Shown here: one piece after another, positions 6,047 to 24,030 of the stretch | Numbering within the stretch: position 1 is the first letter of the stretch | Layout of the letters: each line of letters starts with the position of its first letter | Assembly: GCA_965116885.1 (NCBI GenBank) | Contig: OZ220741.1 | Span: 2,560,001-2,624,000 of the forward strand | Reading direction: 5' to 3' | From: Candidatus Latescibacterota bacterium | GTDB taxonomy: Bacteria > Latescibacterota > UBA2968 | Length of the DNA stretch: 64,000 nt | Made by a program: the position numbers and the translations under genes | The notes under the pieces: generated by a model | What the model was told of the DNA's origin: nothing | What the model saw: only the letters and a program-made list of their open reading frames with translations | Database searches by the model: none

Positions 6047-6198
6047 CCCTTTTTCTATACCATTCTCCTGATATTTTGAAACTCAAGGCCATATTTTTTA
6101 GTTTTTTTAATGAAATACTTATTGGCATGTTGAGAGAAAATAATAAATAGAGTTTTATTTGTCAATAAATAACTCTTGTTTAACAAGTTACAGGCTTG

Positions 6199-6717: not shown

Positions 6718-6982
6718 GGTGTCCTCCTGTTGCGAGAGGGAGAAAAAAGCAGTATCCAAAAGGGGGAGGGTAAGTATAAGAAAAATATGGGTTTTGTCAA
6801 CCTATTAAAATAATTTGTTGATTATACGTTATTTAGAGCAATAAATCCCCAATGGTGTAGTGAATTTTTCTATTGATTCTTTTTGCGAAATTGCGTAAAA
6901 CTTTAGCAACTTTTAGACGTGGAGCATTTGACTACCCTATTGTGGCCCATAAGTCACCCAACAGGAGGTTTGTTTTTTTCTT

Positions 6983-7462: not shown

Positions 7463-7507
7463 TAGATACTTGTATCTGCTGGAGACTAAAATGGTTGCGC
7501 CACAGAG

Positions 7508-7541
7508 AAGCACCCTAAGATTGCACTGAGGGTGCTTTTTT
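7508..7541 (+). terminator. Intrinsic terminator after ferritin 2
   Basis: AAGCACCCT...AGGGTGCTT followed by a T-run. Confidence 0.75.
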
Positions 7542-8319: not shown

Positions 8320-9419
8320 CAAAATACCTGTCGGTTGCGGTTTTGTAGCAATAAAAAGAGGAAAAAGGGTACGCCGATGACTGCGGTTACAATGCCTATG
8401 GGCAATTCGGCAGGTGCGACAAGCGTGCGTGCTACCAGATCAGCGGCCATCAATAGAGAAGCCCCCAGGAGTGCTGCTCCAGGGATTAAGTAGCGATGAT
8501 CTGGCCCAATTGACAACCGCAGAAGGTGCGGCACCACCAGGCCGACAAATCCGATTATGCCCACCACAGAAACCGATGCGCCCACAGCGAGCGCGGCCAG
8601 TGTCACCACTTCGCGCTTCATGCGTTCGATAGATACGCCCAGATGTCTGGCTTCGGCTTCGCCCAATAAAAAGATGTTGAGCGCGCGTCCATAGAGACCG
8701 AGCAAACAGACCGATATAATAATAAAAGGCGTTACCACGCTCACTGATGTCCAGGTCGCGCCACCCATGTTGCCCATGCTCCAGAATGTGATATTGCGCA
8801 ACTGGGCATCTGTTGCCACAAATGTCAATAAACCGGTTAATGCACCGCTCAACGCATTGATGGCTATGCCGGCCAATAGCATTGTTGCCACAGCTACGCG
8901 TCCACTTGTCGCGGACAATTGATAGACCAGTAGTGTTGCAGCGACTCCACCGATAAATGCGGCAATGGGCAGTGTAAAGATGCCCAAAATCTCCGAGAGG
9001 CCCTTCAATACAGTCGCGCCCAGGACAATCACCGATACCGCAGCTAATGCGGCGCCACTTGACACGCCTATCAAACCGGGGTCGGCCAATGGGTTGCGGA
9101 AAAGCCCCTGCATGGCAGCGCCTGATACAGCCAATCCGGCTCCGACGAGCACGTTCAAAAGGACTCTCGGCAGCCGAATGGCGACGACAACGGCTTCCTG
9201 GTGCGATTGAAATGTTTGCTCAACAGAAAACCCCATTCGTTTTGCAAAGATCGACAGAATCTGTGTAGGTGTAACGGATACTGCGCCAATGCCCACCGAG
9301 GCCACTACCAGTACGCATAGCAATACGCACAGTGCCAGCAATATCAGAGAAGTTCGTTTTATTTGTAAGCGAGAAATGCGAATACCATCCCGTTGTAAAA
9401 CTGTTGGTGCCGCGCTCAT
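8319..9419 (-). CDS. hmuU: Heme ABC transporter permease (FecCD family)
   Basis: IRLPRV; QGLFRNPLADPGLIGVSSGA; GIIGFVGLVVPH. Confidence 0.92.
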   Translation of the reverse strand: MSAAPTVLQRDGIRISRLQIKRTSLILLALCVLLCVLVVASVGIGAVSVTPTQILSIFAKRMGFSVEQTFQSHQEAVVVAIRLPRVLLNVLVGAGLAVSGAAMQGLFRNPLADPGLIGVSSGAALAAVSVIVLGATVLKGLSEILGIFTLPIAAFIGGVAATLLVYQLSATSGRVAVATMLLAGIAINALSGALTGLLTFVATDAQLRNITFWSMGNMGGATWTSVSVVTPFIIISVCLLGLYGRALNIFLLGEAEARHLGVSIERMKREVVTLAALAVGASVSVVGIIGFVGLVVPHLLRLSIGPDHRYLIPGAALLGASLLMAADLVARTLVAPAELPIGIVTAVIGVPFFLFLLLQNRNRQVF

Positions 9420-10273
9420 GACCCATCTTTCAATTGTGGGTGTAATAGATGAGACAGGTCGCGCACCGCATCGGCCAATCGGGGACCGAATCCCAACAGA
9501 TAAATGCCATTCATCGTCACAATGCGCCGTTTCTGTCCCGCCGGTGTCAATGCTACGCCGGGTACTTTGAGCAGGTCATTCTCACCGCCCAGACTTTCCA
9601 GCCCACTGTCGAGCATCAAAATGACATCGGGTGCAGCAGCGACTAATGCCTCAGATGTTAAAGGTTTATATCCGTCGTATTCGGTCACGGCATTTACGCC
9701 ACCTGCCAAGTTGATCACGGCATCGGCAGATGTATTTTTCCCCGATACTAACATTGTGCCCTGCCCCCGTGCATAGATAAATAATACGCGGGGATGAAGA
9801 GATACTTTCGCGAGCAATTGGCGCGTTTGCTGCATATTGTCAGATAATTTTTGTGCGAGAGCCTCCCCTTTTTCCGTCTTTTTTATTGCGCTGGCAATCA
9901 CACGGATCTTTGTTAAAGCTACATCTACGGTATGTGAGTCGGGCAGTACCACTACCCGTACGTCGGCCTGGCGAATTTGTTCCAGAGCCGCGGGTGGTCC
10001 AGCATCTGCACTGGCCAATACCAGGGTTGGGTTTAGAGACAATACGCCTTCGGCTGAGAGCCGGCGCTGGTATCCCACTTTGGGCAGGGATGTCGCGGCT
10101 TCGGGATATTGGCTGGATGTATCTACACCTACCAGGAGTGAATCGGCGGCGAGTGCGTACACAATCTCTGTGACGTCGCCACCTACCGATACGACGCGCT
10201 GTACGTGTTCATCGGTATGGCCTTGTGTGAATAATCCACAACACAGGATTAGAAGAATGATTACGCGACGCAT
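9416..10273 (-). CDS. hmuT: Heme ABC transporter substrate-binding protein
   Basis: Signal peptide; RVVSVGGDVTEIVYAL; VGYQRRLSAEGVLSL with the heme-ligating Tyr; LLGFGPR. Confidence 0.92.
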   Translation of the reverse strand: MRRVIILLILCCGLFTQGHTDEHVQRVVSVGGDVTEIVYALAADSLLVGVDTSSQYPEAATSLPKVGYQRRLSAEGVLSLNPTLVLASADAGPPAALEQIRQADVRVVVLPDSHTVDVALTKIRVIASAIKKTEKGEALAQKLSDNMQQTRQLLAKVSLHPRVLFIYARGQGTMLVSGKNTSADAVINLAGGVNAVTEYDGYKPLTSEALVAAAPDVILMLDSGLESLGGENDLLKVPGVALTPAGQKRRIVTMNGIYLLGFGPRLADAVRDLSHLLHPQLKDGS

Positions 10274-10596
10274 TAGACCGTCTCCTTGCGCTCAGAGTCC
10301 AGAAAAACCTCGTGAATCTCCAATTGGTTTGAACCTGTAAACGCCTCTTTGGGTAATGATCCCGACCTGGCATGGCCTTTTTGGAATGCCTCGGAATTGA
10401 CCCAATTTTTGAAATGTTCGTGCGATTCCCAAAAGGTGAGCACGATATAGGGATGATCCTTTTTTTTGGGTCTTAATACTTTGTTGGAGATAAAACCCGG
10501 CATGCCATCCACCAGGTGTGCTCGATTGCGAAAACGCTCTTCAAACTGCTCGGCGTATTCTGGATTTACAAAGATGCGATTGGCAACAGCTATCAT
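10273..10596 (-). CDS. Heme-degrading monooxygenase (ABM domain, IsdG/HmoA/MhuD-like)
   Basis: VANRIFV; FEERF..R; PGF; TFWESHEHFKNWVNSEAFQKGH. The Asn/Trp/His pattern fits the IsdG family, and the gene sits inside a heme operon. Confidence 0.85.
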   Translation of the reverse strand: MIAVANRIFVNPEYAEQFEERFRNRAHLVDGMPGFISNKVLRPKKKDHPYIVLTFWESHEHFKNWVNSEAFQKGHARSGSLPKEAFTGSNQLEIHEVFLDSERKETV

Positions 10597-10622
10597 AACA
10601 GACCTCCTGTCTCGTGTTTCAA

Positions 10623-11387
10623 TTACCGAAGCGAGCGCGTCCCGTCGGGTTGAAACGTGTAAGTGAAATTGTAAAAACGCGATTGTGCACCAGCGGATGG
10701 TATTGCGCCACCGCCTTTGTAATAGCTCGTAAATTTGAGCTTGGCATAACGTCTATCTGCGGTGCGTATAATCAGTACGACCCCTGGATTCATCAGGATG
10801 GCATGAGGTGGAAAACCCTCAGGCCCGGTATATGTGTACCATGCTCTGCCGATAGCGGGTAATCCGGTCTGGTCCTGTACATATCCCGATTCAGGCACTG
10901 TGGAAAGGGTATCGTAGTCTGTTGCCGTGAGCGCGATTGCACCGCCTTGACCGGGACCACTGCTGCCGCTGTTGGTTAAGACGGTCGTGGATTTAAACGC
11001 GAGATCCCATTTTGTGGAATTGGAATCTGCCGGTGATACAATGGCACTGTCTCGAAGGCTGTAATACGTGAAGACGTCCTTCCTGTCCGGATCGGCGGGA
11101 ATATCCCGAACGACCACTTCTGTTAGCGTTGTAATGGGCGCAGGGGCTGGCGCGGCTTCACTGCCGAATACCTGGACAAAGAGTAAGAAGTCTGCAAAAT
11201 CAACCGTTCCATTGTTGTCGAGGTCATATAAGGCCTCTGTTGTGCCAAAAGCCTGGGCAAACTGGAGAAAGTCGGGGAAATCGACTGTGCCACTGCCGTC
11301 AAAATCGGCATTGGACGGTGTTTGTGCCAGGGCTGGCGCTGTTGCTAAAACAAAAATACAAAGGGCCAGCAAGTTTAGAGTTTTCAC
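10623..11387 (-). CDS. hmuY: HmuY-family hemophore with N-terminal tandem EF-hand/dockerin-like repeats
   Basis: SPI signal (ALA-Q); DFDGSGTVDFPDF / DLDNNGTVDFADF repeat; Pro/Ala linker; HmuY motifs KWDLAF, NSGSSGPGQGG, WYTY, IIRTADRRYAKLKFTSYY. Confidence 0.85.
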   Translation of the reverse strand: MKTLNLLALCIFVLATAPALAQTPSNADFDGSGTVDFPDFLQFAQAFGTTEALYDLDNNGTVDFADFLLFVQVFGSEAAPAPAPITTLTEVVVRDIPADPDRKDVFTYYSLRDSAIVSPADSNSTKWDLAFKSTTVLTNSGSSGPGQGGAIALTATDYDTLSTVPESGYVQDQTGLPAIGRAWYTYTGPEGFPPHAILMNPGVVLIIRTADRRYAKLKFTSYYKGGGAIPSAGAQSRFYNFTYTFQPDGTRSLR

Positions 11388-11417
11388 GACGGTATCCTCC
11401 CTGAAAATTTGAAGTGA

Positions 11418-13748
11418 TTAGAAGCTCTTTGTCAATCCCACATAGAGTGTTCGCCCGGGCAGTGAAGGGGTGTAGTCCAGTCGTTTTTCATCGAATATGT
11501 TGTCGATGCCCAATTGAACTGTCGCGACTTTGCGTATGTGTTGGGATATGGAGATGTGCCAGAGGTCATAACCCGGTGCATATTCTTCTGGTGCGTCTAA
11601 GATGGTATTTAAGTTGCGGTCGCGATAACCGTATCGCCCTCGATAAACACCGCGCAAACTTCCACTAAAACCGAGTTTCTCATTGTGAAAAAAGAATCGC
11701 ATCGTGGCCATGTGTTTTGAGCGATTGTACAAACCGCCGTATTCGGATATTTCAACGTGGCGCAGCTTGTTGGTTTCTGTGTCAATTTTTACAATTTGAT
11801 CGGCTTCGATTTTGTCCAGGACTTCTTCGTCTCCGGTTTCCAAATACTGATAGCCCGCGGATAAGGTTACGCTTGAGAATGGGCGTAGCGTGAGGTCGCT
11901 TTCTATGCCTTTTGTAAAGACGCGATTGAGGTTGAAATAGGTATAGACACTCTGCCCGCTCATTTTGCGCGCGATGGGCGAGGCTTCAATGAGGTCCTGT
12001 ACGTTATTGCGGAAGAAATTGATTTTGGCGGATATACTGCGTAGGGGGGCGATTTCAATGCCTCCGTTATATGAAACCGCACTTTCAGCGCGAATCTGTT
12101 CCAGTGATTCAACATCTTGCAAGATGGCGGCAATACGGCCTTCGCGTTGTAGTAATGCCAGGCCTTCGTGCATGTATGTCGATCCCAACACGGAATAACC
12201 CACGGAGGGATTTGTAAAATCCAGATACAATTGCTGAAAGGTAGGTGCTTTGAAACCGCTGCCGATAGAGGCGCGGAGGCGCAGAGAGGGTATCGGTTTG
12301 ATGAGGAGTGCTGCTTTGGGGCTTAAACGGGTTGCGTAATCGCTGTGTGCATCAATGCGTCCGCTGAGGACGATGTTGAGATAGGTGGTGGGCAACCATT
12401 CTTCTTGGAGAAAAGCAAAGGCATTTTGCGAGGTTTGCCGTCCACCTGTGATGCGGTCTGCTTTGACCGATTCCCAAATGCCTCCTGCGCCCATTGTGAT
12501 GAGATTTGTTTTTCTCAAGAGCTTTTGGGCCTGTACTTCGGCTTTGTGATAGGTTTGGGCAAAGGTTGAGGCAGAGTAGGTCTCGCCGCTGTTGCGATAG
12601 GTGAGTTCGCTTTTGGTATGGTACCTGGTGGTATAAAATTTTCCCGTTATCTGGAAATCGGGTGTCCATTGAAAGACGATTTTGGGATTGATATTCCAAT
12701 CCGTCAGTCGCGCATCACTGTGGATGGCCTCTATCGCACCGTTTGAGTAGATCTCATCCAGGTTGTACTGGTCTTCTACAAATACCCGCGCTGCAAGCGA
12801 TAGCGTGGTTCGTTGATTGGGGCGGTAAACGATTTTGGGATTTAACGTGTAGGTGACATATTCAGGTGTGGTTGGAGAAATCGTTTCGGGGGTGTGGTCA
12901 TATCCGTCACTTTGGCCTCTGTCAATAAAGAATGAGGTTCCAAGCTCGCGTTGGTGGGTTTCTAATTCGCCGGTGATATTCAAGGAGCCGAAGCTGCCAT
13001 AGCGCGGACGCACAGATATGGAGAATGGTTTTTCAGGCATTCGCGTGATGAGGTTAATCACACCGGCGAGTGCCTCACTGCCATAGAGGGATGATGTAGG
13101 CCCTTTGACGATTTCTACTTGCTCGAGATTGTTCACCAAAAAGCGGTCCAGGTCGAGCGTTCCCGCTGTGCGGCCGATAATGGGTTCGCCATCCAGGAGA
13201 ATAAGCGTATAATCGGGGTCAAAGCCCTGCATCTGTACGCCCATGCCGTGATCTGATATGACGGCCAGCCCGGTTTGTTCTGCCAACAAGCCTCTCAGAT
13301 TTATTACGCCAGAGGCATCAATTTCTCGTTTGGTAATGACCTGCGTTTGGATGGGCGCATTTTCGACTTTGCGAGATGATTTGGTGCCTGTGACAACAAT
13401 CGGCGGTAATGCAATATTCTCGGGTGTCAACATGATGGTCATTCGAGCGGTGGTGTTTGTCGAGATTTTTATCTCTTTTTTTGTGGGATGATATCCTACC
13501 AGACGCGCTATTAGGACGTAATCACCAGCCGGCACATTGTTGAAAGAAAATCGTCCTGTCGATGAACTCACAGTTCCCAATGATGTATTTGCAATGGTGA
13601 TATTCACATTGGACAACGGCGTTCTTTCAGATGTTTGCACCACTCCTTGAATCCGACCTGTTTCATGTTTTGCAGCGACGGCATTGCATTGCCAGGTCAG
13701 GAAGAGGAGCGGTCCAATCCATTTCATTCCATTCATTATGTATCTCAT
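11418..13748 (-). CDS. TonB-dependent (heme) receptor with N-terminal carboxypeptidase-regulatory-like domain
   Basis: IVVTGTK; plug motif EIVKGPTSSLYGSEALAGVINLIT; GFKAPTFQQLY; terminal Phe. Confidence 0.93.
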   Translation of the reverse strand: MRYIMNGMKWIGPLLFLTWQCNAVAAKHETGRIQGVVQTSERTPLSNVNITIANTSLGTVSSSTGRFSFNNVPAGDYVLIARLVGYHPTKKEIKISTNTTARMTIMLTPENIALPPIVVTGTKSSRKVENAPIQTQVITKREIDASGVINLRGLLAEQTGLAVISDHGMGVQMQGFDPDYTLILLDGEPIIGRTAGTLDLDRFLVNNLEQVEIVKGPTSSLYGSEALAGVINLITRMPEKPFSISVRPRYGSFGSLNITGELETHQRELGTSFFIDRGQSDGYDHTPETISPTTPEYVTYTLNPKIVYRPNQRTTLSLAARVFVEDQYNLDEIYSNGAIEAIHSDARLTDWNINPKIVFQWTPDFQITGKFYTTRYHTKSELTYRNSGETYSASTFAQTYHKAEVQAQKLLRKTNLITMGAGGIWESVKADRITGGRQTSQNAFAFLQEEWLPTTYLNIVLSGRIDAHSDYATRLSPKAALLIKPIPSLRLRASIGSGFKAPTFQQLYLDFTNPSVGYSVLGSTYMHEGLALLQREGRIAAILQDVESLEQIRAESAVSYNGGIEIAPLRSISAKINFFRNNVQDLIEASPIARKMSGQSVYTYFNLNRVFTKGIESDLTLRPFSSVTLSAGYQYLETGDEEVLDKIEADQIVKIDTETNKLRHVEISEYGGLYNRSKHMATMRFFFHNEKLGFSGSLRGVYRGRYGYRDRNLNTILDAPEEYAPGYDLWHISISQHIRKVATVQLGIDNIFDEKRLDYTPSLPGRTLYVGLTKSF

Positions 13749-13792
13749 AAGAGCCTCTTTTCCAGGTATTTGCTGCTGGAAATAGTGTTGGT

Positions 13793-14212
13793 TTAGTTGA
13801 GATGAATCTGCTGCGGGTTGTGATGTATTTGAGGCAAGGGGGGTAGTATTGCACCCGAGAAATCATCGCATTCTTTTTGTATGGGCAAAATGTCTGCAAT
13901 CTCGCAGTCTTCGATAAATTCCAGGCGTTCCTGGGCGCTGGCGAGACTGTCGCTCATAAGGCAAAATTCATCTGTGGGGAGCACCAGCGTTGTTGAGCCA
14001 TAATTGACCGTAATATGTGATGCCTCAATCGTGCCCTGTTCGACCTGACTGTGTATTGCAAAAATTGATTGACACAATTTGGCGAAGCAAGTCAGGCACA
14101 TGCAGATGTTGACATAGCCGTAAAAGAGGCAAATGTGGTCTTCTTTGTAGCGATATACACAGATTGGATGTGTGCCTTCGGTGTTGTTCGCCAGGATTTG
14201 TGAATTGTCCAT
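13793..14212 (-). CDS. Cys/His-rich hypothetical protein, first gene of the heme module
   Basis: SD GGAGGA before ATG 14212; 139 aa; internal repeat HICLFYGYVNICMCLTCF / HITVNYGSTTLVLPTDEF. Confidence 0.65.
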   Translation of the reverse strand: MDNSQILANNTEGTHPICVYRYKEDHICLFYGYVNICMCLTCFAKLCQSIFAIHSQVEQGTIEASHITVNYGSTTLVLPTDEFCLMSDSLASAQERLEFIEDCEIADILPIQKECDDFSGAILPPLPQIHHNPQQIHLN

Positions 14213-14286
14213 GGTGTGTTCCTCCAAATAGATGGATTGTGAGAATTTTGGTTGCATGCATGTATGAGATTTATTTTTTTTAATAT

Positions 14287-14367
14287 GCTGCGCCTCCTTT
14301 GAGGTGTGGCTCTCTGCCATCGGTTTTCTGCTTTGACGGGCGATAACCGGTGGCATTTTTGTTTTTT
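14287..14367 (+). ncRNA. Candidate antisense small RNA 1 (two hairpins plus U-tail) in the leader of the heme module
   Basis: GCTGCGCCTC-CTTT-GAGGTGTGGC hairpin, then TGCCATCGGTT...AACCGGTGGCA-TTTTTGTTTTTT. G-U pairs only on the + strand. Promoter unclear. Confidence 0.4.
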
Positions 14368-14377
14368 GTGCAGAACG

Positions 14378-15763
14378 CTACAAGGATTGCAAAAAGGCGA
14401 GCAATGCGTCGCGGTCTGTTTTGGATAAGTTTCGCACGGCTTCGCGCGATTGTTCGGCTTCGCCGCCGTGAAACATAATGGCTTCGAGCAAGGTTCTGGC
14501 TCTGCCATCGTGTAAGTAGGCTGGAACGCCGCTGACGGTTTCCGTGAGTCCAATGCCCCACAGTGGGGGCGTTTTCCACTCGCGGCCATCGGCTTCGTAG
14601 TCCGGGCGATTATCGGCGAGGGCTTCGCCCATGTCGTGGAGCAACAAATCTGTGTAGGGGTGAATGATTTGATCCGATAGTGACGAGATGCTGTGGCTGC
14701 CTGTTTTGAATGTGGTGGTATGGCAACTTGCACAACCGGTTGATTCAAAGAGTGCTTCGCCTCGCAATGTCTGTGGGTCGTCCCACAGACGTCGTGCGGG
14801 TACGGCGAGTGTTTGTAAGTAAAATGTGGTGATGTCCAGTGTCTCCTGTAGGATTTCCGGATCGTCGTTGCGGCCGTCGTGCTGGGGTTGTCCCAGGACG
14901 GATTCCCGAGGGAAATAGGGGTTGGTAACGCCCATGTCTTCGTTGTATGCGCCAGCGGTCTGTTGCAAGAGATCGGGGTTGTTGGCTTTTAGTCCAAAGC
15001 GCCCCAGTTCCATTTGGCCCGTTCGGAAATTGTACACGTAATTGGGGCGGCCCGATATGCCGTCCCGGTTGGCATCTCCGGGATCTGATAGGGCGAGGAT
15101 ATCGGCCTCGGGGATGGCTTCCAGGAGGCCGCGTCCAAATACGGGCGGGGCCATGCGCGCGGACAGGAGTACGCCAGCGGGCAGTGGTTGATATGCGTCA
15201 ACAATGGTGTAGATGGGGTGTTTTAAGTAAACCTGTTCGCCATCGGATAGGGTTTCCGTTGTTTCGTAAAAGCTGACTTGAACACGCGCTTCGAGTGCGA
15301 CGCCATAGTTTGAGCGGTCGCCGAGTTGGACGCCAAAGCCGGGGACAGGTACAGGGCCGCCGTGTGGGGTGAATCCGGGCAGGCTGACGCGCATGAGCAT
15401 GGAGCCGACAAAGGGTGGTTCAGCGCCAAATGCACCGCGTCCCCGTCCGTCGCGCAGATGACATCCCACGCAAGAGGTGTGACTAAATACGGGACCCAGG
15501 CCGGGGTTGACGTCTGCAGGAGCCGTGACAAAGACCTGTTCAAAGGCGAAATCCCCCGCAAAAAATTGGTCGAGTTCGTCGGGTGAGAGTGTTGGTATGG
15601 GCATTTCAAAAGCCTGGCTGGATGCGTCGAAGACGGTTGCCGCCTCCCCGCCAGATAGGGCACTGTCCTCTGAGGGAGTAGGCTCAACTGGATTTTTGCT
15701 GCTACACGCAGAGAAGAACAGCATTGCAGCTATGGTGGATAAAATATGGCGATCTATTTTCAT
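14378..15763 (-). CDS. Di-heme oxidoreductase family lipoprotein (DUF1111-like)
   Basis: Lipobox FFSAC; CVGCH and CASCH heme-c motifs; PYTDLLLHDMG; WKTPPLWG; LHDGRA. Confidence 0.9.
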   Translation of the reverse strand: MKIDRHILSTIAAMLFFSACSSKNPVEPTPSEDSALSGGEAATVFDASSQAFEMPIPTLSPDELDQFFAGDFAFEQVFVTAPADVNPGLGPVFSHTSCVGCHLRDGRGRGAFGAEPPFVGSMLMRVSLPGFTPHGGPVPVPGFGVQLGDRSNYGVALEARVQVSFYETTETLSDGEQVYLKHPIYTIVDAYQPLPAGVLLSARMAPPVFGRGLLEAIPEADILALSDPGDANRDGISGRPNYVYNFRTGQMELGRFGLKANNPDLLQQTAGAYNEDMGVTNPYFPRESVLGQPQHDGRNDDPEILQETLDITTFYLQTLAVPARRLWDDPQTLRGEALFESTGCASCHTTTFKTGSHSISSLSDQIIHPYTDLLLHDMGEALADNRPDYEADGREWKTPPLWGIGLTETVSGVPAYLHDGRARTLLEAIMFHGGEAEQSREAVRNLSKTDRDALLAFLQSL

Positions 15764-15855
15764 AATTCACTAAAGACACTGAACAGTTCACGACGCGAAG
15801 AATAGCCTGCCCAACCCTACCTCAGGACGGAGGAGTTGGACAATGCAAGATCTGG

Positions 15856-16926
15856 CTACTGTTCTGCTACTACGAGAGACATAACATCCCCTTCGAGCGT
15901 TTGTTGCAAGGTTGCAATGGCCTGTTGTGCCGCTGTTATTTGTGCGGCATCGGTGGCGAGGGCGTCGCGGAATGGGAAGGAGATTTTGCCAATTTCTGTG
16001 ATGGTCGCCTGAATTTCCGCTTTGACACGCTGGTCGAGGGCGGAGTTTTTGCTTTTGATAAATTCATCGAGGCCCATTGCTTCAACATTGTGTCCCCCTT
16101 CATAAACATTTTGAATGCTGCGCATGTTGTCTTGAAAATCGAGGAGGGAGTTAAAGCTGAATTGCGATTCCACCAGGCGCGTGTCTTGTTCGGTAAAGGG
16201 ATCGGCTATTTTGCCGTTTCCGACTTCGTCGGCAATGCCAACCATGCCGTTGACCATTTCCTGGACAGCGGCTTTTTGCGTAGTGTAGGCACTGCTCCCC
16301 GCGCCGGCATTGACCACCTGTGCGCGGAAGTTTTCGCCCGAGGCTATCCAACTCGTGTGCAGTGCTACTGCCGCATCTACGAGCAATTCTGTTGCCGCGA
16401 TCAAATAATCGTATTGACGCGGGGTAAAGTCGTCGATGGTTTTGCGGCTGCCCTCGTCAAAGAGCAAAAATTCAATGGTATGAAATCCTTTGAGTTCGTT
16501 GGCGAGGTTGTTGACGGATGTTTTGGTGAGGGGATCGTTGCTGCCCAGGACACCTTCGAGGTCTGTGCGGTTGACCGGCCAGGAATCCAGCGCGGGATCA
16601 TAGCCGCTAAAATCAACGGGTCCGAACAAAAAACCCTCGCTTTGTTCCCAGGGAATACGCGATGCTACCCATTTTGCTCGGGCGGTTGCCAGCGTAGCTG
16701 TCGAGGGATTGTTCTTGAGATTGTTCACCGCGGCGAGGAGATCTCTGGCGGCGGTGTCGAGGTGTTTGTAGGTCGGGATGACTGTTTTGTCGGCAAAGTC
16801 TGCCAAGATGGGTGAAAAATCGTATCCGGGATCGGGTTCTGGTTCTGGCGCGACCGGGCTTGCACCCTTGCTGCTGCATGCCGCGAGGGATAGGGCGAGG
16901 ATGATACTGAGGGTAATGTGTTTCAT
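15856..16926 (-). CDS. Imelysin (peptidase M75-like) iron-regulated lipoprotein
   Basis: Lipobox SLAAC; WEQSEGFLFGP; LDSWP; KGFHTIEFLLF (HxxE motif). Confidence 0.9.
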   Translation of the reverse strand: MKHITLSIILALSLAACSSKGASPVAPEPEPDPGYDFSPILADFADKTVIPTYKHLDTAARDLLAAVNNLKNNPSTATLATARAKWVASRIPWEQSEGFLFGPVDFSGYDPALDSWPVNRTDLEGVLGSNDPLTKTSVNNLANELKGFHTIEFLLFDEGSRKTIDDFTPRQYDYLIAATELLVDAAVALHTSWIASGENFRAQVVNAGAGSSAYTTQKAAVQEMVNGMVGIADEVGNGKIADPFTEQDTRLVESQFSFNSLLDFQDNMRSIQNVYEGGHNVEAMGLDEFIKSKNSALDQRVKAEIQATITEIGKISFPFRDALATDAAQITAAQQAIATLQQTLEGDVMSLVVAEQ

Positions 16927-16944
16927 GGTGATTCTCCTTAAAAG

Positions 16945-18186
16945 TTAGAATTGAAAGCCGAGTGCAAAACTGGCGGTATTTTCGCCGTTGAAGTTGCCCG
17001 TGCCCAACCGACGCATGGCATAGTCGCCTTTCAGGACGACGGCATTGCCCATGGTGTAGTTGATGCCGAGCGTGTAAACGCGGCGTTGGAAACGCGGGTT
17101 GTCAAAAAAGTTCTGTGGCATTTCGGCCATTGTATCGTAGCTATCAAATCGAAAGAACAGGTGGCATTGATCCTCTTTACGCGAAGTGAAGAAGGGCATG
17201 ATGTCGTAACCGGCTTCGGCGTAAAATGCGTACGCTGCACTGGCAACGGGCGTTCTCAAGACGTCGAGGTTGTTGGATAATGTGCGGTTGCGCTCGCTGA
17301 CAATGTCCGCATTTTGCAGGTTTCCGTAGAGGTACATGCCCTGTGCGCGGAAGCGATTGTATCGCAGCACAGCGTGAACGTCAAAAATGGATATGTAGGC
17401 GTCCGTATCTTTCATGTCGGGTTTGGGGCGGTTGTCGGCGCTGTTGCCGCGGTAGCCCGATACGCCAAAGGTGAGACCGTTGATGAGGCGGTAGTCCAAC
17501 CGGCCCACAAGGGCCATGTTGGTTGCGCGGACTTCTTCAAAGCGCGTTTGATGCCCGCCCACAATCCAGTTTTGCGAATCGAAGCCCGTGGCGTCTAAGC
17601 CGTTGACGAGTTGGAGTTGGTAGGTCAGGCGATTGGTATGACCGCTGATTTCAATACCTGTTTCGTGCCATATTGCTGGAATAACCGCGGTCTCCGATTC
17701 GGAGCGGCGGGTGCCAAAAAAATCTGTGGGGTGGTATTGCTCTGTGGTGAGGCCCACCGCGACGTAGAAGTGGCCCAGGCGGATGTTGAAGGCGTCGCTA
17801 AATTCGCGTTTGATGTAGAGTTCTTCGAGGATGACTTCTCCGCCTTTTTCCACTTCGGTTTCGTATTCGCCGAATTCCTCGTATTCGATTTCGAGGGCAC
17901 CGCCTGTGCCGCCGTGTTCGATTTCTACTTCGGTTTCCAGTTCGACACCGCGCAGCAGACGCAATTCCATTTCGAGTGCCAAACGCGCAATATCTATGGT
18001 GGCGCGGCTATCTGGCGGCGAACCCGCTGGGCCGCTTTTCTGGTCGGGACCGTAATCAAAGTGGGAGTAGATGAGTTCACCGTATCCCGTGATTTTAATT
18101 TTGGGTGCTGACTTATGGTCTTCTGCCATGATGCTTATTGGCAGCGCGAGCGTTAGACAGATGCGAAATAAAAGAAGTCGGTTCAT
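16945..18186 (-). CDS. Outer-membrane porin (LbtU/phosphate-porin-like) associated with imelysin
   Basis: Signal peptide; GYGEL; EVEIEHGG..EYEEFGE; WHETG; terminal Phe. Confidence 0.8.
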   Translation of the reverse strand: MNRLLLFRICLTLALPISIMAEDHKSAPKIKITGYGELIYSHFDYGPDQKSGPAGSPPDSRATIDIARLALEMELRLLRGVELETEVEIEHGGTGGALEIEYEEFGEYETEVEKGGEVILEELYIKREFSDAFNIRLGHFYVAVGLTTEQYHPTDFFGTRRSESETAVIPAIWHETGIEISGHTNRLTYQLQLVNGLDATGFDSQNWIVGGHQTRFEEVRATNMALVGRLDYRLINGLTFGVSGYRGNSADNRPKPDMKDTDAYISIFDVHAVLRYNRFRAQGMYLYGNLQNADIVSERNRTLSNNLDVLRTPVASAAYAFYAEAGYDIMPFFTSRKEDQCHLFFRFDSYDTMAEMPQNFFDNPRFQRRVYTLGINYTMGNAVVLKGDYAMRRLGTGNFNGENTASFALGFQF

Positions 18187-18206
18187 AAACCTCCCCTGTG
18201 TGAGTA

Positions 18207-18328
18207 TTGACGCTTAAAAGGCGTGCTGTTATATTGTGTTTTGCAAGCGCAGAGGGTTTGATCTCTCTGTCGCGTGCGTGCGGGTGATCGGTGATGGCCG
18301 GCAAGTCAGAACCGATCGCCCTTTTTTT
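18207..18328 (+). ncRNA. Candidate antisense small RNA 2 with its own sigma-70 promoter
   Basis: TTGACG(18207)-N17-TATATT(18230) with extended TG. Hairpin GCAGAGGG-TTTGA-TCTCTCTGT. Terminator GGGTGATCGGT...ACCGATCGCCC-T7. Confidence 0.6.
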
Positions 18329-19083
18329 CATGTCCGACGGCGCTTTCGGGTGCGCCACCAGATGACCAGGCCAGAGATGGACAGGCCGATCAGGCCCCAG
18401 GCGGCGATGTCGTAGAGATAGACAAACCAGTCGGCGAAGAAATAGCCGGTATGAATCTGGTGCATGATCGTGTAGAGATCTCGTCCGGGTTTTGCGGATT
18501 GGCCTACAGAGGCCCAGGTTTTTCCGCCATTGGAACTGGTGAGCAGGCCGCCCGATGTCCACAGGTTCAAATTTTGGGTGGAGCCTATGCCAATGCGCTG
18601 GAGGCGAATGCCTTCGGCAAGAGGCATAAATCCGAGGCCGACTTGTTCCCATACGATGCCGCCGTCGGTTGAGCGAATGAGGCCCAGGTCTTCGAGGACG
18701 ACGTATATGTGATCGGGATTGTCGGGCGCGTAGGCGATATCCACAGCGCGTTCTGCCGCGAAGAGCATTGGGACTTCGGTCCAGGTTTTTCCGCCGTCTT
18801 CAGAAGAATAAAGTGCCGAGCGCGTGCCGCGATAGAGGTGTTGGGGATCGCGGGGGTCAACCGCAAATGAGAGGGTGCGTTCAGAGGGCGCGCCGAGCAG
18901 ACTGGGGTGATTGAGCAAAAAACCCGAGACAGCGAGGAGTGATAAAAATATGAGTGCGCCGATGCCGACATAGCGATGGAGTTTGCGGAAAAATTCGGCG
19001 CGTTTTTTGCGCGTTTTGGGCTGTTTCTTGTGAAGCGGGATGGTTTTGTTCCGACGTGTGTAGGCTTGAGGTGTAGCACTCAT
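18328..19083 (-). CDS. PepSY-associated TM helix protein with periplasmic BNR/Asp-box repeats
   Basis: FFRKLHRYVG and MHQIHTGYFF TM His motifs; SEDGGKTW, STDGGIVW and SNGGKTW Asp-boxes. Confidence 0.8.
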   Translation of the reverse strand: MSATPQAYTRRNKTIPLHKKQPKTRKKRAEFFRKLHRYVGIGALIFLSLLAVSGFLLNHPSLLGAPSERTLSFAVDPRDPQHLYRGTRSALYSSEDGGKTWTEVPMLFAAERAVDIAYAPDNPDHIYVVLEDLGLIRSTDGGIVWEQVGLGFMPLAEGIRLQRIGIGSTQNLNLWTSGGLLTSSNGGKTWASVGQSAKPGRDLYTIMHQIHTGYFFADWFVYLYDIAAWGLIGLSISGLVIWWRTRKRRRT

Positions 19084-19667
19084 TGGGATTCTTTTTTTGG
19101 GTAAATGACATCGAGGACGGTGAGAACTCTCTTGACGCCCGCGTTTAAGGCGCGCACCGATAGGGTTGCGCCACTGATGCCGATGATGTCGCGGTTGAGA
19201 CGAATGTGATGATTGACATTTTTATTTCTATATTGGGTCAAGAACCGCTGGCGCTTGACCTGACCGCCTCGCGATTCGCGATAGACCATGATCCATACAC
19301 CGCCAACGCGGTGGTCGGGTTTGACCTTGACGATGAAGGTGATGGGTTTGTAGAGGCCAATTTGATTCGCGATGATCGCGTATCCCTGATGTCGGTCATT
19401 TTTTTTTGCCTGAAAAATCGTGAAATCGGGTTCTTCGAGGCGCCACCCCAACCGCCGTTCAATGCGCCGCCGTTCTTGTGGGGTTGGGGTCCAGACTTCG
19501 CTCCAGAGCGTGTCTGCATCTGGGAAGGCTTTTTTTAGAGCCTGTTCTTCTGTGAGATATACAGTGATAGCCTCTGGGCCATCGGGACCCTGCGCGAATC
19601 CGAGTCCCGACAGGAGGCAGACCATGATACAGAGCACGTACTTATTTTTTATCACTGTTTTCTCCAA
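19080..19667 (-). CDS. FMN-binding domain protein (extracytosolic flavinylation substrate)
   Basis: Signal peptide; YRESRGGQV; DIIGISGATLS matches the [S/T]GA[S/T] flavinylation motif. Confidence 0.85.
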   Translation of the reverse strand: MEKTVIKNKYVLCIMVCLLSGLGFAQGPDGPEAITVYLTEEQALKKAFPDADTLWSEVWTPTPQERRRIERRLGWRLEEPDFTIFQAKKNDRHQGYAIIANQIGLYKPITFIVKVKPDHRVGGVWIMVYRESRGGQVKRQRFLTQYRNKNVNHHIRLNRDIIGISGATLSVRALNAGVKRVLTVLDVIYPKKESQ

Positions 19668-19676
19668 CTCCTTTTT

Positions 19677-20795
19677 TTAGAAATACGATGCAATCGAAAA
19701 GAAGAGGCGTCCAATGCCGTCGCCTTTGTCGCCATTTGCCGGGGTCTTATAGGTGGTGTTGTAATCCAGCTTGAAAGCCGTGTCTTCAACGGGGCGGAAG
19801 TTCAAACCAAAGGTGATCCCGTATTCCGAATCGCCACTTACCGAGGTATCAAAATCGACCCAGTCCCAGCGCGCGATGGCTGTGAACACGGATTCTGACA
19901 AGAAATGATCGTGCCCAAAATGAAAGTTGGTTTGTGCATAAGCACCGCGCTGGTCGCCATTAAATCCATCGGCGGTGGCTTGTCCGTATTCGCCCTGAAG
20001 TTCAAAGGGTCCCTGTGTAAATTGCGCGTCGGCTCCGAAGATGGAGAGGCGGTTGTTGCCCGCATCGTCGTATTTGCCCGTGTGAAGAGATGCGCCGAGG
20101 TCAATGCCCAGTCGCGGGCTGAAGCCGAATCGTCCGACGAGTGCTTTGTCGTGGTTGTTGTCCGATTTTTGGCTGCCCCGTCCGCTTCGAATGCGGAGAT
20201 TGCCGCTGGAGTTGACTTTTTCGTTGAATCCGTTGACGAGGTAGATTTCATAGGTTGCTACGGAGAGTTCAGAGGGGTAAAAGGTGCCAAAGAAGCCCAT
20301 TCCCGCTTCTGAGAGGGTGGATGGCATGATCTGACGGTTCACGGTGGGGCGTTCGGTGAGGTCGTTGAGCGGGCTATCGTGCAAGAGGTTGAAGCGCCCA
20401 AGTGGAGAGAGTATGACACCGCCCCGATAGTTGAAGGCTTCTGTAAAGGTGAAGTCCATGATGGCGAATTCGAGTTTGATTTCGCCATCGGTGTTGCTGC
20501 TGCCTTTGACGAGCCCCCCGTGTTCAAATTCGATTTCGCATGAAACGTGAATTCGGTCGGTGATTTCCGAAAAGATGAAGGGGATAAAACGGTGCTGGTC
20601 AAAGGTGCTGTCTTTTCCTTCTGTCCATTCAAATTCGTGGTCAATATATCCGCCGATAGCTACATTTCTGCCCATGCGTTTGATATAGGGTTTGTCGTAT
20701 ATGCTGCCGGGCAATTCGGGCCGTTTGTTTTCTTCGGCTATGGTGGGTAGTGCGAGTGTGAGAGATAAGAACGAAACGAGCAGTTTGAAGCGCAT
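19677..20795 (-). CDS. Outer-membrane porin, second paralogue
   Basis: Signal peptide from MRFKLL (SD AGGAG); GGYIDHE; EIEFEHGG; GRFNLLHD; terminal YF. Confidence 0.8.
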   Translation of the reverse strand: MRFKLLVSFLSLTLALPTIAEENKRPELPGSIYDKPYIKRMGRNVAIGGYIDHEFEWTEGKDSTFDQHRFIPFIFSEITDRIHVSCEIEFEHGGLVKGSSNTDGEIKLEFAIMDFTFTEAFNYRGGVILSPLGRFNLLHDSPLNDLTERPTVNRQIMPSTLSEAGMGFFGTFYPSELSVATYEIYLVNGFNEKVNSSGNLRIRSGRGSQKSDNNHDKALVGRFGFSPRLGIDLGASLHTGKYDDAGNNRLSIFGADAQFTQGPFELQGEYGQATADGFNGDQRGAYAQTNFHFGHDHFLSESVFTAIARWDWVDFDTSVSGDSEYGITFGLNFRPVEDTAFKLDYNTTYKTPANGDKGDGIGRLFFSIASYF

Positions 20796-20835
20796 GCTTT
20801 TCTCCTGTGTAAAACACAAGACCATTCAAAGTGGG

Positions 20836-20946
20836 TTGACATGGTGCGCGAGAAACCCTACTTTGAATGTGAGTTGTGCTTTTGGTGTGACTCAGACCAT
20901 CTTCCGCCGGGCTGGCAGGCTCTTAAAGCGGGAGGTGGTCTTTTTT
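20836..20946 (+). ncRNA. Candidate antisense small RNA 3 with its own sigma-70 promoter
   Basis: TTGACA(20836)-N17-TACTTT(20859). Hairpin TGAGTTGTGC-TTTTG-GTGTGACTCA. Terminator AGACCATCTTCCGC...GCGGGAGGTGGTCT followed by a T-run. Confidence 0.6.
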
Positions 20947-21070
20947 GTTTGGTGGTCTATAAAAATGTTTTACTAACAAAACACTCGCCCAACAAATAAA
21001 ACAAGTGTTGGGCTTATGTCAATATTTTTTTAATAATTCAGGGGATATGTCAACATATTTTTTAATAACT
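20941..21070 (-). promoter_or_regulatory. Promoter/operator block of the iron operon (copy A of a ~130-bp duplication)
   Basis: Minus-strand TTGACA; inverted repeats CCCAACA-N11-TGTTGGG and TGTTTT-N6-AAAACA; homologous to 22689-22820. Confidence 0.7.
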
Positions 21071-21305
21071 GATGTTACGCAGTTTGTCGAAAAGTACGCC
21101 ATTTTTGCACAATAATATAGAGTTCTGTGTAAGATCAGTTATTAGTCTATTCCGATTTTTAGTTGGAAAGCACCAGAATGAATGAGTGAATCATCCGTAC
21201 ACTAAAATCGGTCGGGCCACCAAACGTGTGGATGACCGGGTGGAAAGAGAGCTTCCAGTACAGGAATAATTTCCTCTGTTATTCTCACACATTACATTTG
21301 GGACT

Positions 21306-22025
21306 TCAGAGTCGCTCATTCGCTGTCGATTCCCGGTTTTGCATCGCCACGAAATGGCGTTCCACCCGGCCTGTCGCCAACATCGTACCGATGAGCAGTA
21401 ACCATAGAACGAAGGCTGGCCCACTGAAATGATGCATACCGATCACTGCGTCTGTCCATATAAATTGCATGGCGATGCCGATAACTGCAGATGCGGGTGC
21501 GACATATCTGAGTTGACCGCCGACTTTCCACTGGTACCGCGCCGCGAGGATGAGTGCCAATCCAGCTGCCGAGAAACCGATTTTGCCGGTGAACCATCGA
21601 AGGTATTCGGTCGTCTCTGCCGTGGCGGTCACTTCTGGAGCAATGGCAACAAGCGCGATTGTACACGCCCCGGAAATGATCGTAAAAAGTCCAGACACAG
21701 CGAACAGCACCGGTACCAGAGGCGTACCCAGTCGCTCCTTGATAATCCAGGTTCTCGACAAAAACCACGCACCTGCAACCAGCGCAACCCCCGAGAGCAG
21801 CCTGCCGACACCTCCCGTAGCGTAAAGGCCACCACTCTCTGAGATCGCGACGAGCGATTCAGCAAACGTGGATTGATCCGCGTCGGCAGCGACTCGTCCA
21901 ATAACGGCAACACCTGTTGCTAATGCAGTCAATATCAGAGATAGCCCTCCTTTGCGAGTGCTGGCATCCTGTGGCCGATCAACTATCTCCTCGCCCGAAG
22001 TTGATGGATGCGATGATTCTTTCAT
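21306..22025 (-). CDS. Integral membrane protein (DUF4386-like)
   Basis: About 6 hydrophobic segments; SD AAGGAG; C-terminal FVLWLLLIG. Confidence 0.6.
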   Translation of the reverse strand: MKESSHPSTSGEEIVDRPQDASTRKGGLSLILTALATGVAVIGRVAADADQSTFAESLVAISESGGLYATGGVGRLLSGVALVAGAWFLSRTWIIKERLGTPLVPVLFAVSGLFTIISGACTIALVAIAPEVTATAETTEYLRWFTGKIGFSAAGLALILAARYQWKVGGQLRYVAPASAVIGIAMQFIWTDAVIGMHHFSGPAFVLWLLLIGTMLATGRVERHFVAMQNRESTANERL

Positions 22026-22058
22026 AGTGATTACTCCTTTTATGTGGGTACAGCGGAG

Positions 22059-22628
22059 TCAATCCGTCCAGTTCAGCACCTCTTCGAGAGGTTTGCGCCT
22101 CGGTTCAGGTATTTCATCGGGATATCCGGTATAGAAAAATCCGATGATGTATTCGTCCTCGGTATCTACACCCAACAATTTGTAGGTGTTTTCTTCCAGC
22201 GTGATCGGCCCCGTGCTCCACTGCATGCCAACCCCTTCTGCCCAGGCGGCCAACTGTACATTTTGCATGGCGCAACACGCAGCCGCATAATCTTCTCTGT
22301 TCTTGATGTCATCGCCATCTTGCAAACACACCACCGCAATAATTGTGGGCTTTGACATGAACTTGTCATAACCGGCATCTTTTAATATGCGCCTGGCCTC
22401 GTCGCTGGCACCTTCAGCCGCTTTTGCCTCCTGAATTTCGCTGTAGCGTTGCGCCAGTATTTCTTTGGTTTCTTCTCCCAGGACTACAAACCGCCACGGT
22501 TCTGTCAAATGGTGATTGGGTGCCCAAAGACCGGCCTCAAAAGTTTTTTCAATCACATCTTTGGGCACACCACCCGGTTTGAACTTAAAAATTGTGCGCC
22601 GTGTGTGAATGGCTTCCAAAACGTCCAT
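22059..22628 (-). CDS. Nitroreductase family protein
   Basis: AIHTRRTIFKF; WAPNHHLTEPWRF; AMQNVQLAAWAEGVG. Confidence 0.92.
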   Translation of the reverse strand: MDVLEAIHTRRTIFKFKPGGVPKDVIEKTFEAGLWAPNHHLTEPWRFVVLGEETKEILAQRYSEIQEAKAAEGASDEARRILKDAGYDKFMSKPTIIAVVCLQDGDDIKNREDYAAACCAMQNVQLAAWAEGVGMQWSTGPITLEENTYKLLGVDTEDEYIIGFFYTGYPDEIPEPRRKPLEEVLNWTD

Positions 22629-22688
22629 TGCTTGCCTCCTGTTGGGTTTCGGTAAAAGAAAGTCTTAAAGTTTGGTTTGGTAGTAATC

Positions 22689-22820
22689 TTTTTTGTTTTG
22701 TGAACTATAGAATTGTTTTGCTGGTAAAACAATCGCCCAACAAACAAAACAAATGTTGGGTATATGTCAACAATTTTTTTAATAGTTTAGAGGATAAAGC
22801 AACATTTTTTTAATAATTAG
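22689..22820 (-). promoter_or_regulatory. Promoter/operator block (copy B) upstream of the nitroreductase
   Basis: Same CCCAACA-N11-TGTTGGG, TGTTTT-N6-AAAACA, TGTCAA and ATTTTTTAATA elements as 20941-21070. Confidence 0.7.
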
Positions 22821-22844
22821 CCGTCAGTGGTCAGCAAAAATCTC

Positions 22845-22950
22845 CTGGATCGCAGTTCGGCCCTGTCCCTGCGGGAGTAAGCAGGGGATCTTGCCGCGAT
22901 GACGATCGCTATGCCCGTTGTCACGCCTGCATGCCTTAAGCAGGCGTCCA
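22845..22950. repeat. GTCA...TCCA palindromic repeat pair
   Basis: CTGGATCGC...GCCGCGATGAC and GTCACGCCTGC-ATGCCTTAA-GCAGGCGTCCA; related to 1791-1822. Confidence 0.6.
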
Positions 22951-23052
22951 AAAAGAGGGAGGCTGATCGCTCTTGGCTCATCACTTTACACTTTGCACTT
23001 TGTACATAACCGTCTATTTTGCAGAGGAGTTTTGGCAATGAGGAGGTACGAA

Positions 23053-24030
23053 ATGTCTGAAAGGTTGAAGGTCGCTGTTATTGGTGCGAGTGGCATTGGA
23101 CAGCACCACGCGCGATGGCACCATTTGTCGGGGTCTCGAGTGGTGGCATTTGTGGGTACTTCGGAAGAATCGTGTGCAAAGACCCGATCGCAATTGCAGG
23201 CGTATTTTGGCTTTGATGGGCACGCATATACGGATGTGGCACACATGCTGGCGACTGAACAGCCCGATGTAGTCGATGTTTCAAGTCCTTTTAATTTGCA
23301 CAGAGACCATGCAATTATGGCTCTGGAAAGTGGGTGCCATGTGGTGTGTGAAAAGCCCTTGTGTTGGGATGTGGATAGGGATTTGGACGATATTCTGGCA
23401 GATGGACAGGCTGTGGTGCGTGCGGCGGAACAGGCGGGGAAGTCGCTGGTGATGTCTGCACAGTATCCCGCGGGGATTTCAGTTTATCGCGATTTTTACG
23501 CGCGTGTGCGGGGGGCGTGGGATAAGGTTGAATCGCTTGAGATGGAGATGGAGGTGAAGGGGCGGGGGGGACCAAAGACGCGGGAAGCTATCTGGATTGA
23601 TGTGGCTTCCCATCCGCTGAGTTTGGTTCTGGGGTTTTTGCCAGGGGGAGAAATCGATTGGACAACGGTCTCATGTGCAATAGGCGAGCGGGAAAATCGC
23701 GCGGGTTTTGAGGTAGTTACGCCCAGTGGACGGTGCGATGTGCGGTTTGTTTTGCGCGATATCGATGAGGGGGTGCCTGCGCGGCAATTTGGCGTGAATG
23801 GCTTTTTGGTGAATTGGGAAGGGTTTGCCGATGAGGAGGGTATTTATCGCGCGCGATTGGTCCACGGAGACGAGGCTGTGATTTGTGACGATTTTATGCA
23901 TATTTTAATCGATGAATTTGGCAAGTATGTGCGCGGCGAAGGTGGGCGGGTTGTTGTTTCTGGCGCGGATGCGTTGGTGAATTTACAGTATCAAATTGCT
24001 CTGTTAAAGCTGGCGGAGTGGCCTGTATGA
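23053..24030 (+). CDS. Gfo/Idh/MocA family oxidoreductase
   Basis: VAVIGASGIG; VVCEKP; SD AGGAGG before ATG 23053. Confidence 0.88.
   Translation: MSERLKVAVIGASGIGQHHARWHHLSGSRVVAFVGTSEESCAKTRSQLQAYFGFDGHAYTDVAHMLATEQPDVVDVSSPFNLHRDHAIMALESGCHVVCEKPLCWDVDRDLDDILADGQAVVRAAEQAGKSLVMSAQYPAGISVYRDFYARVRGAWDKVESLEMEMEVKGRGGPKTREAIWIDVASHPLSLVLGFLPGGEIDWTTVSCAIGERENRAGFEVVTPSGRCDVRFVLRDIDEGVPARQFGVNGFLVNWEGFADEEGIYRARLVHGDEAVICDDFMHILIDEFGKYVRGEGGRVVVSGADALVNLQYQIALLKLAEWPV

Follow-up and report, generated by a model that had tools for sequence, protein, structure and literature searches.

In Synechocystis, the cis-antisense RNA IsrR opposes the iron-stress-induced gene isiA; in the cited account, IsrR is abundant when its target is off, and the two RNAs are degraded together, resulting in a threshold and a fast shut-off (PMC8635728). 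In Vibrio anguillarum, RNA-alpha of the pJM1 fat/ang operon represses fatA and fatB under iron-rich conditions, and its synthesis is Fur-dependent as far as the cited accounts describe it (PMC5524678, PMC7968456). The present work concerns three short elements, numbered 1 to 3, on the + strand of an iron-gene array in a Candidatus Latescibacterota bacterium (assembly GCA_965116885.1). The array lies in a stretch of 64,000 nucleotides (nt), hereafter the window, which covers positions 2,560,001 to 2,624,000 of contig OZ220741.1; positions below are those of the window unless stated otherwise. Other antisense systems supply the remaining points of reference. RNA-beta, which Stork et al. are said to have described in 2007, reportedly acts at an intergenic border of the fat/ang operon; RNA-alpha and RNA-beta are both said to be several hundred nt long, and IsrR is reportedly about 177 nt in length. 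The compact antisense RNAs of the Sok, CopA and RNA-OUT class need no chaperone and possess YUNR U-turn loops, the recognition motif of fast-pairing antisense RNAs. In noncontiguous operons, or excludons, a gene of opposite direction is embedded in a co-transcribed array, and the overlapping transcripts regulate each other. Among the iron-responsive small RNAs, PrrF adjoins haem-uptake genes.

The iron-gene array of the window (7540-20795) lies on the - strand throughout, and the gene layout thereby bears out an earlier reading made from the letters alone (the original prediction). The same reading had placed three + strand elements of common design in the array, and these were seen at 14287-14367 (element 1), 18242-18328 (element 2) and 20870-20946 (element 3). 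Judged from sequence, elements 2 and 3 have good support as + strand genes for structured RNAs about 75-90 nt long, and the case for element 1 as a + strand small RNA is fair. The elements would be new RNA families of a known kind. It is proposed here, with about even confidence, that these small RNAs would be cis-acting antisense RNAs directed at leaders and intercistronic stretches of the iron-operon transcripts.

Each element consists of a 5' hairpin with a UUUG-containing loop, a terminator hairpin of 40-48 nt with a structured top, and a T-run. In element 1, located directly after the gene of the di-haem protein DHOR, the predicted RNA (14284..14367, +, with a putative start) contains a 5' hairpin at 14287-14310 with a UUUG loop, the linker UCUCU, a terminator hairpin at 14315-14355 and a T-run at 14356-14367, the end of which is 10 nt from the DHOR stop codon (14378). 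In element 2, located in the spacer between the PepSY_TM and BBP2 porin genes, the predicted RNA (18242..18328, +, start likewise putative) contains a 5' hairpin at about 18238-18281 with a GUUUGA loop, a terminator hairpin at 18282-18321 and a T-run at 18322-18328, which abuts the PepSY_TM stop codon (18328-18330). In element 3, situated in the leader between an AT-rich module and the first porin gene, the predicted RNA (20871..20947, +, with a presumed start) contains a 5' hairpin at 20871-20893 with a UUU(U) loop, a terminator hairpin at 20894-20941 and a T-run at 20942-20947. The UUUG in the loops of all three 5' hairpins fits YUNR and is retained in most orthologues. Folded as single sequences, elements 1, 2 and 3 reach -38.7, -47.5 and -35.4 kcal/mol on the + strand (z scores of -5.2, -5.4 and -4.2) and -24.7, -33.1 and -19.7 kcal/mol on the - strand (z scores of -3.7, -3.95 and -2.1), and none of 200 shuffles matches the + strand folds. 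The terminator hairpins, with free energies of -22.1, -25.5 and -28.5 kcal/mol for elements 1, 2 and 3 and a T-run after each, are the strongest three on the + strand of 6000-24000. On the - strand, no U-run follows the hairpins at any of the three elements. The folds leave hardly any single-stranded seed.

The strand of the elements is indicated by orthologues from genomes of the same genus, which were aligned for element 1 (11 sequences), element 2 (10 sequences) and element 3 (12 sequences). The consensus folds of elements 1, 2 and 3 amount to -34.5, -40.6 and -33.6 kcal/mol on the + strand, compared with -18.1, -25.6 and -15.7 kcal/mol for the reverse complement. The 80 stem pairs over 32 distinct sequences comprise 676 Watson-Crick cells, 163 G-U cells, 2 A-C cells and 12 other cells; G-U occurs somewhere in 27 pair columns and A-C in 2. 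The wobble pairs, read in the original prediction as G-U on the + strand and hence A-C on the - strand, thus keep this bias across the orthologues. In this comparison, which uses a structure predicted on the + strand and closely related sequences, 97-99% of the stem cells pair on the + strand, whereas 71-88% would pair on the - strand. Approximately 20 pair columns, by manual count, change one side yet remain paired on the + strand, and approximately six contain breaking changes, the divergent terminator of locus L020 being excluded. In addition, indels of 1 nt and 4 nt occur in the orthologues, the latter in element 2, so the elements are not coding.

To our knowledge, the promoters of Latescibacterota have not been described, and the housekeeping form was therefore derived from the genome's own 48 tRNA genes. 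In the Bacteroidota, which are placed in the same superphylum, promoters have another form. About half of the 48 tRNA genes have TTGACA-N17-TAnnTT approximately 10-30 nt upstream, one of them with the exact hexamers of element 3, and this form, which resembles the E. coli type, is taken as the predicted housekeeping promoter of the genome. Element 2 is preceded by a putative promoter TTGACG-N17-TATATT with a TG before the -10 box (18207..18235, +), which matches the tRNA promoter consensus, and element 3 by TTGACA-N17-TACTTT of the tRNA-type form (20836..20864, +); for element 1, the weak candidate TTGGTT-N18-TATTTT (14248..14277, +) can be read from the sequence. A count over both strands of the 5.56-Mb genome gives 168 matches to TTGAC[AG]-N17-TAnnTT. 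DNA outside gene cores, which makes up 16% of the genome, contains 143 of them, and two of the 168 (18207 and 20836) precede the 5' hairpins of elements 2 and 3 by 6-7 nt. The near-consensus promoters claimed originally for these two elements were found at these boxes. In element 2, the boxes are kept in 10/10 orthologues with varying spacer; in element 3, TTGACA is kept in 12/12 and TA(C/A)(T/C)TT in 12/12, again with variable spacer. Such retention of the boxes while the spacers vary freely is a promoter signature.

Covariance model R1, run over 53 genomes of the order, found a single copy of element 1 in each of 11 of the 21 that belong to the genus and gave no convincing match in the other 32; for element 2 as for element 3, the count is 12 of the 21. 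In the loci of eight relatives, element 1 is 89-99% identical and the neighbouring coding DNA 78-96%; in the same comparison, the identity of element 2 is 83-97% in the loci that have it. The two elements compared, 1 and 2, thus equal or exceed the neighbouring coding DNA in conservation. In this genome, the only convincing match of each covariance model is its own element, in single copy. Cross-matches of the models at the sites of the other elements in relatives are full-length and weak (E 0.01-0.4), and extra weak matches in this genome (E 0.03-8) are not iron-linked where checked. The three elements therefore share a design and, on this evidence, perhaps a distant ancestry, without a detectable sequence family; of the family proposed originally, the common architecture stands and the sequence kinship does not. 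The proposal that no known family has this layout agrees with the Rfam check, which gave no match to the elements on either strand: at gathering thresholds, the only match in the whole window is a tRNA at 32989-33062, and at E ≤ 10 the region 13500-21500 yields five matches (long non-coding RNA, microRNA, small nucleolar RNA and one Brucella small-RNA model), none overlapping an element and all far below the gathering scores of their families.

One of the weak matches of the element 1 model is located at G000:C1:1453237-1453320 (-), corresponding to 1501-1584 of locus L134 (E 0.028), and consists of two hairpins and a T-run, with GCTTTGACGGG at the top in common with element 1. It is flanked by the genes of a UDP-glucose dehydrogenase and a PAS histidine kinase, and its position on the same strand between the two indicates that it is not iron-linked. 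A search of metagenomes with the 17-nt invariant core of element 1 returned at least 120 stretches; among the matches listed, 0/120 carry neighbouring element 1 sequence, so these are chance matches and add no diversity.

Within the array, the genes are called in three modules. The first contains the Por2 (porin-like), FMN_bind and PepSY_TM (PepSY_TM/BNR) genes (20795-18328, -); the second contains the genes of the BBP2 porin, a weakly EfeO-like imelysin and DHOR (18186-14378, -); the third starts with a 140-amino-acid protein of unknown function, followed by the genes of a haem TonB receptor, HmuY, an ABM monooxygenase and a haem-type ABC transporter with binding protein, FecCD and ABC components (14215-7540, -). 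Ferritin-like genes are located just outside the array at 6199-6759 (-) and 6983-7462 (+). The BBP2-imelysin-DHOR core is kept in 29/29 Latescibacterota loci examined, and element 1, where present, always stands directly after DHOR. On its other side, the haem operon is found in just this genome and one relative; in the other relatives, this place is taken by a different TonB receptor (24% identical) approximately 220 nt away. It is the 3' end of the DHOR gene, not the haem module, with which element 1 is associated, and the original description of one element per module, upstream of its first gene, fails across relatives in that the link between element 1 and the haem genes is not conserved. 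In locus L055 of one relative, a further antisense hairpin with a T-run is present in the imelysin-DHOR spacer (7076-7156, -; about -36 kcal/mol for the stretch folded). A sequence like this hairpin forms the loose end of a metatranscriptome contig at 15856; the imelysin-DHOR spacer of this genome (15764-15855) contains no such hairpin.

No sense-strand (-) intrinsic terminator was found in the spacers separating the genes from 20795 to 7540, and the sole intergenic sense-strand candidate upstream of the array is inside the AT-rich module. Since the spacers lack sense terminators and the T-runs of elements 2 and 1 lie at or near stop codons, sense transcripts should cross the elements, and each small RNA would then find its full complement in the leader, the intercistronic RNA or the 3' untranslated part of an iron-operon transcript. 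A second lineage, at a greater distance, points the same way (L075, L077, L078 and L081; imelysin 56-58% identical). There, a different antisense unit follows DHOR, with the promoter TTGAC(G/C)-N17-TA(T/G)GTT and with GCUGGCAGGC at the top of its terminator in common with element 3. At approximately 8460-8730, the 5' hairpin of the antisense unit, read as its complement and followed by a T-run, doubles as the sense terminator of the DHOR operon, so the small RNA of this lineage must overlap the DHOR 3' untranslated region by approximately 100 nt. The case for sense read-through across the elements thus combines spacers without terminators, stop codons abutting T-runs and the interleaved terminators of the second lineage.

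The AT-rich module of approximately 130 nt (20939-21068) follows element 3 and begins with the T-run of that element; a second copy is situated at 22687-22816. The copies are 83% alike over 93 nt, one preceding the first porin operon and the other a nitroreductase gene. The module contains TGTCAAY-N-TTTTTTAATAA units, which correspond to an A-tract and TTGACA on the - strand, plus two palindromes. Genome-wide, its motif has five matches, comprising three sites here, a weaker one between the ferritin genes (6800-6823) and a weak one near a tRNA. By its sequence, the module is probably an operator/promoter of an iron regulon and the regulated - strand promoter/operator site of the island. In the second copy, the T-run has no hairpin before it, and the element 3 cassette therefore looks like an insert borrowing the module's T-run. 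In several relatives, the AT-rich module comes directly after element 2. In L053, a close relative, one deletion took elements 2 and 3 plus the intervening genes. An imperfect 14-nt inverted repeat (ATTCAAAGTGGGTT ... AACCCTACTTTGAAT; 20826-20870) encloses the promoter of element 3, where it might serve as an operator or fold into a hairpin of the sense leader; in two variant relatives, no compensating changes preserve its pairing. With regard to a type I toxin, inspection by eye gave no plausible small open frame opposite the elements.

In the cis-antisense mechanism proposed here, three independent + strand small-RNA genes would be transcribed from their own promoters (strong in elements 2 and 3, weak in element 1), which, being of housekeeping type, would allow steady synthesis. 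At its 5' end, each RNA would present a hairpin for recognition, with a UUUG loop of the U-turn type, and it would be closed by an intrinsic terminator. It would pair with the sense RNA first loop-to-loop and then along its full length, and the duplex would be cut by an RNase III type of enzyme, or the converging polymerases would interfere. As a result, leaky iron-uptake messages would be removed and the modules would stay uncoupled until strong induction outruns the antisense RNA. The Hfq model PF17209 finds nothing in this 98.4% complete genome, and control genomes respond to the same search. A Fur gene is present, with two Fur-family matches in the genome (positions 346355-346678 and 4640880-4641143), and the 64-kb window has no Fur box within three mismatches of a 19-nt E. 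coli-type consensus, which may not be that of the phylum. The lack of Hfq and of an E. coli-type Fur box, the near absence of a single-stranded seed and the YUNR-type loops make a cis-antisense role a better fit than a RyhB-like role in trans, and the lack of a sense-strand terminator between the modules also favours it. Of the two functions suggested originally, the cis-antisense one is accordingly preferred over the RyhB/PrrF-like one, which has neither Hfq, an E. coli-type Fur box nor an Rfam match behind it.

More speculatively, and with less than even confidence, the elements might serve as chaperone-free punctuation. Short constitutive antisense cassettes, exchangeable between sites, would mark the module borders of a terminator-less iron super-operon and would set the expression threshold and the 3'/5' end of each module by duplex formation. 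If so, they would represent an RNA-level substitute for sense-strand terminators and internal promoters.

Several findings weigh against the cis-antisense reading. Firstly, the elements are dispensable. Element 1 is absent from five relatives (G004, G006, G012, G014 and G019), which have only DHOR-side matches; the loci L054, L058, L059 and L060, which lack it, have a plain hairpin terminator after DHOR, two-way in L058 and L060; and in G015, element 2 is absent and the PepSY_TM and BBP2 genes are approximately 20 nt apart. Secondly, no sense-strand promoter can be placed with confidence, and upstream of the modules no sense-strand box pair of housekeeping type exists except TTGACA-N18-AAAAAT in the AT-rich module. 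Thirdly, in the terminator hairpins the loops and apical parts hardly vary, to a degree that termination would not require, and conservation this high would also suit protein binding or targets elsewhere. Fourthly, compensatory covariation is thin, with both-side pair changes at 0/25 pairs in element 1, 1/27 in element 2 and 2/28 in element 3. The covariation score of element 3 is reached by 1 of 500 shuffles, and elements 1 and 2 do not stand out clearly from their shuffle controls. Given so few both-side changes, it is the strand asymmetry, not classical covariation, that makes the main structural argument; in the orthologue alignment, the + strand hairpins and the promoter boxes of elements 2 and 3 turned out to be conserved, and the compensatory pairs hardly materialized. 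Fifthly, with a threshold of at least four of six positions in the -35 box plus TAnnTT, the box pair of element 1 passes in 7/11 orthologues, and this genome is among the four failing. The relatives carry TTTGCA-N18-TATGTT or TGGACA-N16-TATTTT, compared with which the spacer here is 3 nt shorter, and a TTGCAT box kept in the relatives has a spacer of only 14 nt here. Without a convincing promoter, the expression of element 1 in this genome is doubtful. Public RNA data bear on both sides; three metatranscriptomes contain 5-8% of the sampled words. Their contigs come from a relative and are mostly 90-99% alike; they span iron genes and bridge elements 1 and 2, and those of a coral metatranscriptome join element 1 to DHOR and the BBP2 gene to element 2 and the AT-rich module. 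Such bridging points towards cis action, although these contigs carry no strand, ends or levels and may be DNA carry-over.

The near-invariance of the loops and apical parts is also a point in favour of a different role, considered unlikely here, in which the small RNAs would be trans-acting iron-homeostasis riboregulators of the RyhB, PrrF or NrrF kind, pairing imperfectly with messages elsewhere, such as those of iron-rich proteins. The location amid iron uptake and storage genes suits such a role, as do the apical motif GCUGGCAGGC common to element 3 and the second-lineage antisense unit and the element 1-like apical motif at the weak match elsewhere in the genome (E 0.028). However, a trans role has to contend with the lack of an Hfq gene, of a match to any Rfam iron small-RNA family at E ≤ 10 and of an E. 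coli-type Fur box within three mismatches; the promoters resemble tRNA-type housekeeping ones, hardly any seed is single-stranded, and no sequence common to the three RNAs is detectable by the models.

The behaviour of the cassettes in relatives bears on a second alternative, less probable again, in which the elements would be a transcription-only insulator or interference device at the module borders and nothing would depend on the RNA product. The cassettes are exchangeable: directly upstream of the BBP2 porin gene, the place of element 2 in this genome, G004 has a cassette of the element 3 type. Cassettes have also been lost in relatives without visible damage to the operon. Strong promoters opposing the incoming sense polymerase, with terminators placed exactly at the upstream stop codon or promoter module, would fit such a device as well. 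Interference alone, however, needs no particular RNA, whereas the RNA body, 5' hairpin and loop included, is at least as conserved as coding DNA, and the substitutions preserve + strand pairing.

It is improbable that the structures belong to the - strand message, as a riboswitch, attenuator or stability hairpins, and that the + strand features are coincidental. The elements do occupy sense leaders and spacers, the - strand folds of elements 1 and 2 beat their shuffles (z scores of -3.7 and -3.95), and the palindrome around the element 3 promoter could be a leader hairpin. On the - strand, however, the 163 G-U cells become A-C mismatches, with pairing at 71-88% against 97-99%, the consensus energies are about half, and no U-run follows the hairpins; moreover, Rfam gives no match on either strand, and the + strand promoter boxes are conserved with variable spacers.

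In a terminator scan of our own over all non-core DNA of the 5.56-Mb genome, for which genes were called crudely by longest open reading frame, 1056 sites with a hairpin and a T-run were found, 30 of them with a free energy of -22 kcal/mol or lower and antisense between co-directional genes; 13 of the 30 are two-way terminators, and 3 of the other 17 are the present elements, within 6.7 kb. Chance hairpins or decaying, functionless remnants, to which the patchy presence in 11-12 of 21 genus genomes per element would be suited, are very improbable in view of this clustering of 3 of the 17 strong, non-bidirectional antisense terminators, the 0/200 shuffles that fold as well, the rare promoter pattern correctly placed at two of the three elements and the conservation of elements 1 and 2, the two compared, at or above coding DNA. 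Outside the window, at G000:C1 1833844, 1938144, 1939165 and 2396443 (-), the scan also gave four 37-nt hairpins with T-runs that are nearly identical to each other (GCCGCCGACA...TGTCGGCGGC) and were likewise assigned an antisense position between co-directional genes; these may be another small-RNA family or a repeat family. A tRNA-SeC is located at genome positions 607502-607599.

A full-text literature search found no published regulatory RNA of Latescibacterota, and the elements, if real, would be the first candidate regulatory RNAs of this uncultured phylum. If the cis-antisense reading is true, an Hfq-less sponge/coral symbiont controls the uptake of iron, a contested host resource, partly by antisense RNA. 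Meanwhile, the promoter form TTGACA-N17-TAnnTT helps to annotate other genes of the lineage, and the three loci constitute precise targets for stranded metatranscriptomics.

Compared with the known systems, the logic proposed for the elements is the same as that of IsrR and isiA, as far as the cited account of that pair goes. In that account, one RNA lies inside the isiA coding region, whereas three cassettes of 75-90 nt are located here in non-coding leaders and spacers; furthermore, the elements have no sequence or Rfam relation to IsrR. With RNA-alpha and RNA-beta, the array has in common that more than one cis-antisense RNA would occur within one polycistronic iron-uptake operon. Those RNAs reportedly overlap coding sequence, whereas the present ones are short, closed by terminators and found in another phylum; the synthesis of RNA-alpha is described as Fur-dependent, whereas housekeeping-type promoters and no E. 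coli-type Fur box are found here. RyhB, PrrF and NrrF, which are Fur-repressed and Hfq-dependent, resemble the elements in size, in ending at an intrinsic terminator and in their location near iron genes, but the elements have no Rfam match, Hfq, E. coli-type Fur box or obvious seed, and they would be fully complementary to the overlapping sense RNA. The closest likeness in form, a 5' stem-loop fitting YUNR (UUUG here) followed by a terminator, is to Sok, CopA and RNA-OUT; those RNAs control replication, killing and transposition on mobile elements, whereas the present elements are single-copy and belong to a chromosomal iron island. What is embedded in an excludon is as a rule a gene for a protein or an antisense RNA of some length, whereas in this array it would be three short non-coding cassettes.

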